DNA of 62,035 nt, counting the filler. It is 4 parts of 4 records of this genome, joined end to end, with 100 filler letters (N's around TTAATTAATTAA, not from the genome) between each part and the next. Parts side by side here need not be neighbours in the genome. Positions count along the whole stretch, not along the records: positions 37,825 to 45,513 come from SRR2962707_4819; 3 more parts are not named here. One strand, written 5' to 3'. The notes under the pieces are model-generated. The model did not search any database, was not told the DNA's origin, and was given only the letters and a program-made list of their open reading frames with translations. Of this stretch, positions 244 to 45,613 are shown piece after piece (position 1 is the stretch's first letter; each line of letters starts with the position of its first letter). A program made the translations under genes and the position numbers.

Positions 244-485
244 CTGCCCTCTCCCCTTTTCAAACTATTGGCATCATTAATGGCATAATTTTTTGGACCG
301 ATAAAGCGCGGCCGACGCAGCGGCAGGGAGGCCAAGGGCAGAAAGGCGCAACCGGCTGTTCGCAGGTGAACGGCTTTCCCGCCTCTCCCAAGTTCCGTAA
401 CGGCACCGATGAGGCTATCTTCACCGGCAGGAAAAGGCCGCCTCGTCCGGCAGGCCGCATGAACAGGCATTTGGGAGACGTCCGC

Positions 486-1538: not shown

Positions 1539-3221
1539 TCAGGCCATTTTCGCGACCTCGAGTTTCAGTTCCTCGATCATCGCGTCGCGGATCTGGAACT
1601 TCTGCACCTTGCCCGTTACCGTCATCGGAAACTCGCCGACGAAGCGCACATAGCGCGGCACTTTGTAGTGCGCGATCTGCCCCTTGCAGAAGGCCTTGAT
1701 CTCGTCTTCGCTCGCGCTCTCGCCGGGCTTCAGCTTCACCCAGGCACAGATTTCCTCGCCGTATTTTTCGTCCGGCACGCCGACGACCGCGACATCCTCT
1801 ACCTTCGGAAGCCGGTAGAGATATTCCTCGATCTCGCGCGGATAGACGTTCTCGCCGCCGCGGATCACCATGTCTTTCAACCGGCCGACAATGTTGCCAT
1901 AGCCTTCCGCGTCGATCACCGCGAGATCGCCGGTATGCATCCAGCCGTCCGCGTCGATGGCCTCCGCTGTTTTCTCCTCATCGTCCCAATAACCGATCAT
2001 CACGGAATAGCCCCGCGTGCAAAGCTCGCCCGGCGTGCCGCTCGGCACCGTCTTGCCGTCGAGGTCCACCACCTTGCATTCGAGATGCGGCTGCACCCGC
2101 CCGATGGTCGAGACGCGCCGCTCCAGAGGATCGTCCTCGCCGGTCTGGAAACTCACCGGGCTTGTCTCCGTCATGCCGTAGGCGATGGTGACGTCCTTCA
2201 TGTTCATGTCGGAAATCACCCGCTTCATCACTTCGACAGGGCAGGGCGAACCCGCCATGCAGCCAGTGCGTAGCGACGAAAGATCAAACTTCGCGAAATC
2301 GGGATGCCCGAGTTCCGCGATGAACATGGTCGGCACACCGTAAAGCCCCGTGCAGCGCTCGCTCTCCACCGCCTGCAATACAGCGAGCGGTTCGAATGCT
2401 TCGGCCGGATAAACCATCGTCGCGCCATGCGTCAGGCAGCCGAGATTACCCATCACCATGCCGAAGCAGTGATAAAGCGGCACCGGAATGCAGAGCCGGT
2501 CGCCTTCCTTGAGGCCGATGCTCCGCCCGACGAAGAAACCATTGTTGAGAATGTTGAAGTGGGAAAGCGTCGCGCCCTTCGGCAGGCCCGTTGTCCCGCT
2601 GGTGAACTGGATGTTGATCGGGTCGCGGGCGTCGAGTTCGCCCGCCGTCCCGGCAATGGCGCGCCGGTCCTCAGTGCTCGCAAGCCCGGCGATCCCGTCG
2701 AAACCAAGCCAGCCTTTTGCAGGTGTGCCGCCGATCTGGATCGCATGTTTCAGATGCGGCAGGCGGGCGGAAGAAATCGCTCCCGCCGCTCGCGCGATCT
2801 CCGGCGCAAGTTCGTTCACCATCGCCACATAGTCGGAAGTCTTGAAGCGCTCCGGCGTGACCAGCGCCTTCACGCCCACCTTGTTCAGCGTGTATTCGAG
2901 TTCGGAAAGCCGGTAGGCCGGGTTGATGTTGACGAGGATGATCCCCGCCTTTGCCGTCGCGAATTGCGTCAGCGTCCATTCCGCGCAATTGGGTGCCCAG
3001 ATGCCGAGCCGGTCGCCGCGCCGGAGCCCGAGGGAAAAAAGACCGGCGGCCAGCGCCTCCGCCTTCTCGTTGATCTCGGCAAAGGTCCAGCGGATGTTTT
3101 GGTGGACGGAAACAAGCGCCTCGCCATCCGGCCATCGCTCCGCCGCCGCGGTAAGCGCCGCCCCGATCGTCTCCTCGCGAAGCGGCGGCGTCGCCGCGCC
3201 GCGCACATGAGCGTCCGTCAT
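1539..3221 (-). CDS. AMP-binding acyl-CoA synthetase (fatty acyl-CoA ligase, ACSF2-like)
   Basis: [20 protein letters not shown] and GKVQK motifs; start at MTDAH behind GGGAGG. Confidence 0.92.
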
Positions 3222-25366: not shown

Positions 25367-25466
25367 NNNNNNNNNNNNNNNNNNNNNNNNNNNNNNNNNN
25401 NNNNNNNNNNTTAATTAATTAANNNNNNNNNNNNNNNNNNNNNNNNNNNNNNNNNNNNNNNNNNNN
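25367..25466. other. Artificial contig linker
   Basis: N44-TTAATTAATTAA-N44, with stops in all six frames. Confidence 0.98.
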
Positions 25467-37724: not shown

Positions 37725-37824
37725 NNNNNNNNNNNNNNNNNNNNNNNNNNNNNNNNNNNNNNNNNNNNTTAATTAATTAANNNNNNNNNNNNNNNNNNNN
37801 NNNNNNNNNNNNNNNNNNNNNNNN
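37725..37824. other. Artificial contig linker
   Basis: N44-TTAATTAATTAA-N44. Confidence 0.98.
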
Positions 37825-37853
37825 TGGATGCCCGGGTCAAGCCCGGGCATGAC
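37825..37853. repeat. REP-like palindromic repeat arm at the contig start
   Basis: TGG-ATGCCCGGG-TCAAG-CCCGGGCAT-GAC; resembles the common alphaproteobacterial GGATG...TCAAG...CATGAC repeat. Confidence 0.7.
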
Positions 37854-37921
37854 GGATTGGTGGTGAGAGCGTCCTCACTCCAAATAAACTTATCCCCCTC
37901 TCTTCCTCCGTACCCATATTA

Positions 37922-38257
37922 ATGCGATCTCGCTCCACCGAAGGGCGCGTCCGGACTGGCCGAATGCGTGGAGAGGGTGTCGATGCCTGCGACGTGGGAA
38001 TTCCAGACCCGCGTCCCGGGGGATCCCGTCGGTTGGTGGATACTACGGTCCACGGGCGTCCCGGCCGATAAAAGCCGGGAGTGCGCCAGAGTTGGAATGG
38101 GGGATCCGAAAAATCGCCGCGCGGAGCGTCGGAGGAGGACGCACCCCGCCATTACAAAAAACAACGGCGGCGTCGCCGCCGCTCCGCGCATCCTTTCCTT
38201 GAAGGCCGCGACAAGCAAACCTCCGAAGGTTCACGCCTTGCGGAGTCGCTGGTGCAT
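37922..38257 (+). ncRNA. Putative large structured non-coding element of unknown class
   Basis: At least 8 nested or adjacent stems found by eye; no credible ORF; strand inferred from an upstream CATATT -10-like element (see findings). Confidence 0.5.
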
Positions 38258-38265
38258 GTTTTCGC

Positions 38266-39207
38266 TCACGCCGCTTCCGCCCTCGTCCGCTCAGCCAGCA
38301 CGCGCGCGGCGACACCCCAGGCGTCCAGCTGCGCGATGCGCGCCTCGCGCGAGACTTCCTTGCGGCCTTCTTCGGCGAGCTTCGACGAAAAGTGCCAGGT
38401 GTTGCCGCCGGGGTTCGCTTCCAGCACATAGAGCTTGCCGCTGTGCCGGTCGCGGATGATGTCGAGCCCCTGAAGCGGGACGCGCGGCATCGCGGCCGCG
38501 GCACGGCGCGCAAAGGCGAGCACGTCCTCTCCGGTGGTGAGTTCGCAGGTGAAATCCGGTTCGATATTGGAAGCGACGGAACAGGCTTCGCCGCCGGTCG
38601 CGTCGAGCGGCGGGCGTGAAGCTTTCGAGCGATAGGTCACCGAATGAAGCGGTTCGCCGAACAGCGTCAGCACACGGTAACTTTCGGGATAATCCCCGGT
38701 GTCGACAAAGCGTTGTACGAGAAGTGCCGCGCGGCCGCGATGACCGGGCGGGAAGAGCACCGGCGCCAGTTCCCTCACGCGCCGCACCGGCACGAGAAAC
38801 ACCGCATCGCCCAGAGAGGTCGCCAGAGGCACCGCTGTCTTGAGGATGACATGATCGCCCCAGAAGGAGGGATCGAGGCCGGTGCCGAGTTGGTAACGCT
38901 TCGCCGCAGGAACCGGAATGCCGGCTTCCACGAATTTCTTCATCTGCACGAGTTTCGGGATTGGGAGCCCGTGATAAAGCGGCCCGCGCTTCGGCCGAAA
39001 ATAGCGCGGCGGGAGCATCGAGACGGAGAATGCCGGGCGGCGCCAGAAGGTTTCCGGTAGTCCGTCCTGCCCATTCGTCATCTGGACGATCTGCACGTGG
39101 ATGTCTGGTGCCGCCTCGGCGATCCGCACCGCAATTTCCTCGAAGTCGCGCCTGTCCTGCGCGCCGGGCTGGTTGAGGAGGATCAGGTTTTTCGTCGGGC
39201 TGTGCAT
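38266..39207 (-). CDS. Orphan ATP-grasp-like protein
   Basis: LVQRFVDTG...SYRVLTLFG and GLDIIRD...LYVLEANPGG resemble the RimK-type ATP-grasp C-terminus; start uncertain (39207 vs 39315). Confidence 0.65.
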   Translation of the reverse strand: MHSPTKNLILLNQPGAQDRRDFEEIAVRIAEAAPDIHVQIVQMTNGQDGLPETFWRRPAFSVSMLPPRYFRPKRGPLYHGLPIPKLVQMKKFVEAGIPVPAAKRYQLGTGLDPSFWGDHVILKTAVPLATSLGDAVFLVPVRRVRELAPVLFPPGHRGRAALLVQRFVDTGDYPESYRVLTLFGEPLHSVTYRSKASRPPLDATGGEACSVASNIEPDFTCELTTGEDVLAFARRAAAAMPRVPLQGLDIIRDRHSGKLYVLEANPGGNTWHFSSKLAEEGRKEVSREARIAQLDAWGVAARVLAERTRAEAA

Positions 39208-39507
39208 CTCTCGGCATCGAAGGCAGCGGCGGGGTTTCCCGCAGATGGGGCCCTCATTATCCCGCCGTTGCAACGCGAGTTTCGTCCGTAGCGGCATGAA
39301 CATTCCGGCCATCATCCGCCGCCAAGAGACAGTCGCAAATCAATCGGTAAGCGGATTATATCCCGTCCTCGCTTCGTGTGATTCAACGTGATTAATACGG
39401 AGTCCTACTTCGTAATATTCTTGCGTGGCGATAAGAAATTCGAATTGACCGTCCCCTTTCGGGACCCCATAAAATAGGTGTTTCATATCCTAGGGGGGAA
39501 AACACAA

Positions 39508-45513: not shown

Positions 45514-45613
45514 NNNNNNNNNNNNNNNNNNNNNNNNNNNNNNNNNNNNNNNNNNNNTTAATTAATTAANNNNNNNNNNNNNNNNNNNNNNNNNNNNNNN
45601 NNNNNNNNNNNNN
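45514..45613. other. Artificial contig linker
   Basis: N44-TTAATTAATTAA-N44. Confidence 0.98.

Follow-up and report, generated by a model that had tools for sequence, protein, structure and literature searches.

Comparative evidence for an uncatalogued family of structured RNA genes in Parvibaculaceae

Does the spacer that faces the 3' end of a convergent 349-aa ORF encode an RNA of its own, or do the many stems that can be drawn in it simply follow from its base composition? The initial annotation, made from the letters alone, had described here a multi-domain structured element, either a non-coding RNA or a non-autonomous mobile RNA, without known family. The window (the whole stretch of DNA analysed, 62,035 nt) consists of four contigs joined artificially, with runs of N at 25367-25466, 37725-37824 and 45514-45613 and a linker that reads N44-TTAATTAATTAA-N44, so gene order across the three linkers is meaningless. 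Since 37725-37824 is such a linker, the element stands at the head of a 7.7-kb contig (37825-45513), and the Mur-ligase fragment that had been counted as its left-hand neighbour sits beyond the linker, on another contig. The ORF on the right (Table 1) has no Pfam family and matches only NCBIfam STM4014, below threshold; its relatives occupy 63 loci in Alphaproteobacteria and a few other groups, the closest being in Parvibaculum/Parvibaculaceae assemblies.

Just outside the RNA unit, a palindromic repeat (GGATGCCCGGGTCAAGCCCGGGCATGAC...) occupies 37826-37871. A search of a plasmid collection gave matches confined to these first 46 nt, in 28 records, mostly from Rhizobium. In those plasmids the motif lies in unannotated spacers; it also occurs in locus L066 and upstream of a 75-nt RNA candidate in L143 that is described below, and it looks like a REP-type intergenic repeat.

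Reading the sequence directly, we found all helices of the initial annotation to be complementary (Table 1). Folding energy does not set the element apart: for the + strand it is -147.4 kcal/mol, while dinucleotide shuffles average -144.8 +/- 6.2 (z -0.43) and 29/100 of them fold as well, and the minus strand has a z-score of -1.15, so neither strand folds better than shuffled sequence. As single-sequence folding is ordinary, and by the annotation's own reasoning would have counted against it, the verdict on the element rests on its homologues. The two z-scores are what one would see if the stems had arisen by chance in G+C-rich spacer DNA, a reading refuted by the comparative data and to which we give practically no weight. 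In one homologous locus (L003), where the adjacent protein is only 61% identical, the spacer 3' of its gene aligns with window positions 37869-38255 over 401 nt at 90.5% identity; strong covariation is found in both close and diverse sets of copies; and covariance-model matches reach E 1e-49.

The homologue search proposed in the initial annotation was productive. Besides L003, two further loci match the element over about 100 nt, and whole-genome BLAST found matches in 38/73 Parvibaculaceae genomes, with as many as 6 in one genome and frequently at the ends of contigs. The same query gave no match in 400 other sampled Alphaproteobacteria, with only two candidates scored per genome. A covariance model, R1, that runs from P1 to the 3' strand of P2 (205 positions, 56 pairs) located 1-5 copies in 41/73 Parvibaculaceae genomes; in a class-wide sample it matched one of 150 other alphaproteobacterial genomes, G194, which alone represents its family and order in the collection and holds three copies scoring 41, 38.6 and 28.3 bits. 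Searches at order level, where the collection is the same 73 genomes, and among relatives brought in no further genomes. The window itself holds one copy of the unit. The carriers are one group of marine and soil Alphaproteobacteria, with several copies per genome. The similar architectures suggested for other Alphaproteobacteria in the initial annotation are borne out for Parvibaculaceae and for one isolated lineage, and not elsewhere among the genomes searched. A literature search, which left supplementary files outside its reach, found no paper on this RNA.

We aligned 32 full-length homologues to the helices of the initial annotation, with small corrections, giving 78 hand-placed pairs. 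In this structure 90.4% of 2447 cells are paired, compared with 33.6-49.6% when partners are slid by 1-3 columns, and 38 of the 78 pairs change on both sides. None of 500 column shuffles reached any of five measures, a control that ignores relatedness and phylogeny. Predictions by RNAalifold agree in kind, with 59 pairs (20 compensated) from 10 copies and 57 pairs (25 compensated) from 32. When 29 diverse copies were aligned to R1, 46/56 pairs changed on both sides, in an alignment that leans towards the model because it was fitted to it. The RNAalifold energy is -84.7 forward and -63.1 in reverse, and the alignment holds 162 G-U/U-G cells against 9 A-C/C-A cells, which together place the RNA on the + strand.

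Table 1. Coordinates of the features discussed (window positions unless a locus is named)
Feature	Position	Strand	Remarks
Promoter-like region	37882-37920	+	A-rich 37882-88; TTATCCCC box 37890-97; CATATT -10 box 37915-20
Predicted RNA, ~320 nt	37927-38250	+	Predicted start 37927 +/- 2; predicted end after P9
P1, long bent hairpin	37929-37977; outer 37929-38/37968-77, inner 37947-54/37960-67	+	Loop ACUGG; 5' bulge CGAAGGG
Two-tier junction domain	37979-38118	+	P2 closes P3 and P5; P5 closes P6 and P7
P2	37979-84/38113-18	+	95% of cells paired
P3	37986-38020	+	92% of cells paired
P5	38021-27/38101-07	+	72% of cells paired; alignment imperfect there
P6	38036-53	+	100% of cells paired; 5/5 pairs covarying
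P7	38055-87	+	61% (outer) and 83% (inner) of cells paired
P8	38119-38189; 10-bp closing stem 38119-28/38180-89	+	Around variable insert
Pyrimidine tract UCCUUU	38191-38196	+	Directly 3' of P8; complementary to P1 bulge GAAGGG 37940-45
P9, 3' hairpin with one bulged G	38221-38245	+	3' edge of repeated unit
Terminator-like hairpin and T-run	38163-38183	minus	Inside P8
Stem CTCCAC/GTGGAG	37933-38/37968-73	+	Complementary as initially annotated
Stem GACGTGGG/CCCGCGTC	37991-98/38008-15	+	Complementary as initially annotated
Long-range stem GGATCCC/GGGATCC	38021-27/38101-07	+	Complementary as initially annotated
Stem GTGGA/TCCAC; second stem	38036-53; 38055-87	+	Complementary as initially annotated
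Closing stem CGAT/ATCG	37981-84/38113-16	+	Complementary as initially annotated
Stem GCGCGGAGCG/CGCTCCGCGC	38119-28/38180-89	+	Complementary as initially annotated
3' hairpin	38220-46	+	Complementary as initially annotated
349-aa ORF	38266-39315	minus	Right of element, convergent; ends at 38266
75-nt RNA candidate	L143 ~1010-1080	minus	
75-nt RNA candidate	L144 ~335-405		
G194 CxxC protein gene	L155 1881-2270		
G194 CxxC protein gene	L159 ~1887-2375		
G194 CxxC protein gene	L161 1259-1824	minus	Needs frameshift

The hairpin P1 is the most conserved part of the RNA family. In the 32 close copies 100% and 96% of its cells are paired, and once diverged copies are added 8/9 outer pairs and 4/4 inner pairs change on both sides. 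The junction domain behaves likewise in the diverse copies, where 28/35 of its pairs change on both sides. In P8, 98.4% of cells are paired and an A-U to G-C exchange is seen in 13/32 copies. The insert that P8 carries exists in at least three types, of which the window has the one with a GGAGGAGGA loop and an A-rich loop. At the 3' edge, P9 is paired in 99% of cells, with 4/9 pairs changing on both sides, and its approximately 10 G-U cells against 2 A-C cells again favour the + strand. Moreover, short variants of 113-135 nt keep P1, P2, P3 and P8 and have no P5-P7. The RNA family is modular, with an exchangeable P8 insert and short forms.

Two other contacts were considered. A possible kissing interaction between the P1 loop ACUGG and the P3 loop CCAG is paired in 70.7% of cells of the 32 copies, with zero compensation. 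The 5'-3' closure proposed in the initial annotation, ATGC(G)ATC with GGTGCAT, was rejected: the longest leader-tail helix averages 4.61 against 4.47 +/- 0.15 for permuted tails (31 copies), 57 of 300 permutations reach the observed mean, and the 5' arm lies upstream of the predicted start.

The two ends of the RNA may nevertheless be tied together in another manner, by pairing of the P1 bulge with the pyrimidine tract after P8. Among the 32 close copies both segments are nearly invariant, and 89.6% of cells are paired compared with up to 83.7% when slid, a difference that does not decide the matter. In diverged subfamilies bulge and tract change together, in the versions GAAGGG/UCCUUC, AAAGG/CCUUU, GGAAG/CUUCC, GGGAAGG/CCUUCCC, GCGAAGGG/UCCUUCGC, GGAGGG/CCCUCC, GGAGGGG/CCCCUCC, GAGAGGG/CCCUCUC and AGAGG/CCUCU, and all three G194 copies have GAGGGG/CCCCUC. 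The longest bulge-tail helix has a mean of 6.11, compared with 5.50 +/- 0.16 for shuffled tails and 4.57 in the next window along, a count made over 47 rows that include six with a mislocated P8 arm. We consider a pseudoknot between the bulge and this tract likely.

How would such an RNA be made? The CATATT hexamer pointed out in the initial annotation is present, and the homologues keep it at a fixed distance: it and the upstream TTATCCCC box have the same spacing in 29/32 copies, while the sequence of the spacer varies (of the remaining three rows, two were mis-anchored by the regular expression and one lies at a contig end). Across copies TTATCCCC may read TAATCCCC or TTGTCCCC and CATATT may read CATACT, with an A-rich run ahead, and 6 nt separate the end of the -10 box from AUCUCGC. 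In five carrier genomes the exact box pattern occurs only before RNAs of this family and before one other small RNA. A scan for the sigma-70 consensus made no call in the window copy, where the -35 hexamer would be TCCCCC (37893-98) with a 16-nt spacer, a poor -35 region. In G194, a sigma-70 promoter of unrelated sequence was called at the same position in 3/3 copies, ending 7-8 nt before RNA position 1, once as TTGACA-16-GATAAT (11/12 matches) and twice as TCCACA-16-TACAAT (9/12). One of these copies has an upstream sequence unlike that of the other two, and similarity among the three is confined to the stretch between RNA position 1 and about +320. In the family at large, homology between copies begins at the promoter and stops just after P9. 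The best evidence for a transcription unit starting at about 37927 comes from G194, with promoters called at the same place and copies that are alike only from position 1. On these grounds the element is most likely transcribed on its own, and its start would lie near 37927, behind a putative promoter that belongs to the unit (TTATCCCC followed by CATATT). The initial suggestion, an RNA with transcription of its own or else a dispersed repeat, agrees with the conserved upstream boxes and with a dispersed unit in 1-5 copies per genome.

At the other end, no canonical intrinsic terminator was called on the + strand; all terminator calls are on the minus strand, inside P8 and 3' of it, and the window copy has 3 overlapping terminator-like sites there compared with 0.4 +/- 0.9 in shuffles. 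Such minus-strand sites are also found 3' of 3/3 G194 copies. Hairpin and T-run sites on the opposite strand would shield the gene from convergent transcription.

Other readings of the boxes were tried. A heat-shock (RpoH-type) promoter was rejected, as in five carriers the groES promoters differ from the RNA boxes in -35 sequence and in spacing. Upstream of groES in 5/5 Parvibaculaceae (L150-L154) we observed CTTGACA-N16-CCTAT(C/T)T and, downstream of it, the inverted repeat TTGGCACTC-N9-GAGTGCTAA, which we take to be CIRCE-like. In two of the three G194 copies the TTATCCCC position is occupied by TTATCCACA (L159, and L161, where it is read from the TCCACA hexamer); this string, presumably the DnaA box consensus, makes a candidate DnaA box that we offer as a lead only; the text consulted in two reviews (PMC6393856, PMC4468827) contains no site sequences. 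The RpoE/ChrR motif TGATCC-N16-CGTA, in the form given in the text consulted (PMC5507510), does not fit the RNA boxes.

In two genomes, a second and unrelated RNA candidate, a hairpin of about 75 nt closed by GCUCCA/UGGAGC, lies behind a TTATCCCC...CCCCCATATT promoter (Table 1); it has no Rfam match at E <= 1.

Is this RNA already known under another name? The statement that it lacks a known family was upheld by Rfam 15 (4227 models), which gave 0 matches at gathering threshold in the whole window and, at E <= 0.1, none in 10 homologous loci. Between 37826 and 38400 there are 8 sub-threshold matches, the best with 18 bits against a gathering threshold of 50. Structured RNAs of 150-400 nt for which own transcription is usual, as is predicted here, include 6S, RNase P RNA and tmRNA. 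The element has no match to the 6S and RNase P models (RF00013, RF00010), and since the canonical genes lie elsewhere in 3/3 carriers, it is not a replacement for a housekeeping RNA. Rfam tmRNA models match nothing in the window, and ARAGORN found 0 tRNA or tmRNA genes in 15 homologous loci, including those with GGUUCGAnUUCC in the P8 insert. A CsrA sponge was also considered: CsrB/RsmZ are of similar size and GGA is enriched about 1.5-fold in this RNA (369 triplets vs 244 expected over 32 non-independent copies, 7-17 per copy, many of them in stems). Unlike those sponges, this RNA has long-range helices rather than a row of short hairpins, and PF02599 was found in 0/5 carrier genomes, with E. 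coli, B. subtilis and T. maritima positive as controls; we rejected the sponge reading.

Among stand-alone RNAs, raiA is another orphan of complex fold that was found in bacteria by comparative analysis. With ROOL, GOLLD and OLE, in the features covered by the text consulted (PMC12286853), the present RNA shares a stand-alone, multi-junction covarying fold, the absence of an obvious cis target and discovery by comparison, but it is smaller, occurs in several copies that evolve in concert, and is limited to a narrow clade. None of the raiA, ROOL, GOLLD and OLE models matched 37826-38400 at E up to 10. The cuckoo RNAs (alpha-r14 / SmelA075 / CcsR1-4; RF02344, RF02791) resemble it in being independently transcribed (here a prediction) and multi-copy in Alphaproteobacteria, with modular variants and differing intergenic 'nests' (PMC4615179). 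However, the same source, in the sections consulted, describes them as built from 2-4 simple hairpins that carry CCUCCUCCC in their loops and form no multiloops, and lists Rhodobacteraceae and four Rhizobiales families without Parvibaculaceae (PMC4615179). The present RNA, at about 320 nt, has two junctions and probably a pseudoknot. The sole CCUCCUCC string is on the non-RNA strand and in one P8 insert type only. The CcsR1 model scored 16.4 and 11.3 bits against a gathering threshold of 65.3, on the minus strand, while this RNA is on the + strand and has two junctions, and we rejected a cuckoo/CcsR identity. The element matches no catalogued RNA family, and we are close to certain that it represents a real family of structured RNA genes.

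Could the folded RNA be an mRNA instead? Type I toxin-antitoxin loci such as hok/sok and Ibs/Sib are multi-copy intergenic repeats with highly folded RNA, and a multi-copy, highly folded RNA of about 300 nt with an SD-like GGAGGAGGA in the loop at 38131-39 could recall them or some other small-protein gene. However, no ORF of at least 20 codons occupies a common position on either strand in the 32 copies, and loop indels are not multiples of three, from which we conclude that the RNA is not coding. The closest homologue lacks the ATG at 37922 and the GGAGGAGGA loop is limited to one insert type, so that we regard this explanation as very improbable.

The genes around the copies bear on a second alternative, that the unit works in cis, either as a 3'-UTR or bidirectional terminator between convergent genes or as a leader or riboswitch. 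The flanks vary by locus (beta-lactamase-like, NUDIX, NAD kinase, def, GNAT, alaS, cobT, corrin methylase, TSCPD protein), and no protein gene is common to them in Parvibaculaceae. Of 10 Parvibaculaceae loci, 7 have a convergent gene downstream, as the window does, 2 have a co-oriented one, and in 1 the orientation is unclear. The position between convergent genes in most loci and the built-in minus-strand terminator-like sites would suit a terminator, but a nine-helix junction fold far exceeds what termination needs. A leader or riboswitch in Parvibaculaceae was rejected on the scarcity of co-oriented downstream genes. In G194, a small ORF in the same orientation follows each of the three copies, an arrangement that would suit action in cis in that lineage. 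These ORFs are paralogues; their product is small and basic, with a pair of CxxC motifs and a conserved C-terminus, DPLRD(F/Y)TYW(V/I)QHE. The protein has no Pfam or PHROG family and one relative in a large protein database. In 73 Parvibaculaceae genomes the sole hit has E 0.0099 and 2 stops, and in want of a credible counterpart there the protein cannot be a general partner of the RNA. Together with the unrelated genes that adjoin the unit at different loci and the promoter boxes directly upstream of the conserved 5' end, these observations make a cis module of the neighbours improbable.

A third alternative, already raised by the words 'mobile RNA' in the initial annotation, is that the unit is selfish: a mobile element or repeat, non-autonomous, propagated as DNA or via an RNA copy, whose fold serves its own spread. 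Several copies per genome, many of them at contig ends, are compatible with this. Within a genome copies are alike over the unit only (369-468 bp; 91-93% in G038, 95-98% in G028), and those of G038 and G028 are 75-83% alike to the window copy; copies within a genome are thus more alike than copies between species, and P6 sequences are genome-specific, not site-specific. In two species the unit occupies the same convergent NUDIX/NAD-kinase spacer in opposite orientations (L065 and L070), and the G194 copies adjoin DUF5131 and methylase/Mrr genes. Furthermore, in runs containing the window DNA some contigs break inside the unit, and others diverge from 37881/37886 and from 38211; such breaks fit further copies in the source organism, and depth there is no measure of copy number.

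Several observations speak against mobility. In 31 copies the longest shared flank word, looked for as a target-site duplication, is at most 7 nt and occurs in a minority, most copies sharing none; in 29 copies the longest match between ends is 4-8 nt (mean 5.41 compared with 5.01 +/- 0.18 for shuffled ends), with no clear terminal inverted repeats; and no transposase, integrase or reverse transcriptase was found at the flanks examined. Some sites are common to several species: G004 and G005 both carry the unit at def, and three other genomes have it, as the window does, 3' of the 349-aa gene. Gene conversion explains the likeness within genomes equally well, and G-U-tolerant covariation over approximately 50 pairs together with a promoter is what a functional RNA gene needs. 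We judge a selfish element to be unlikely, and the mobile half of the initial proposal found no backing in target-site duplications or terminal inverted repeats.

This leaves the reading in which a gene complete in itself, at 37882-38250 on the + strand, probably encodes a non-coding RNA with a length of about 320 nt. We hypothesise, with some reserve, that this RNA may work in trans through its fold, which a protein or a small ligand would recognise, since its best-conserved part is a paired, bulged hairpin rather than a single-stranded seed and the rest is held by junctions. The RNA would then be a scaffold, a decoy or a catalyst rather than an antisense regulator. A more specific and more tentative possibility is that it represents a new complex-folded RNA class (a ribozyme, a ligand sensor or an RNP scaffold) that might travel as a sealed cassette of promoter, pseudoknotted nine-helix RNA with exchangeable P8, and built-in terminators, settling between convergent genes and kept uniform within a genome by gene conversion or by some form of DNA-level copying.

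It is rare to find a new bacterial RNA whose fold combines several junctions with a pseudoknot; earlier cases proved to be ribozymes, sensors of ligands or components of RNA-protein machines. The comparative data on the present family are unusually clean, with approximately 50 covarying pairs, a defined (predicted) start, natural deletion variants and exchangeable modules, and this makes the RNA directly testable. For the carriers, the repeat has a practical side, as it breaks short-read assemblies of their genomes. The family also raises the questions of how a promoter-to-terminator cassette is copied and kept uniform at scattered sites with no visible mobility gene, and of which factor reads the dedicated promoter of the unit. 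If the cassette reading is true, the different P8 inserts and the forms that lack P5-P7 would be functional variants of one platform.
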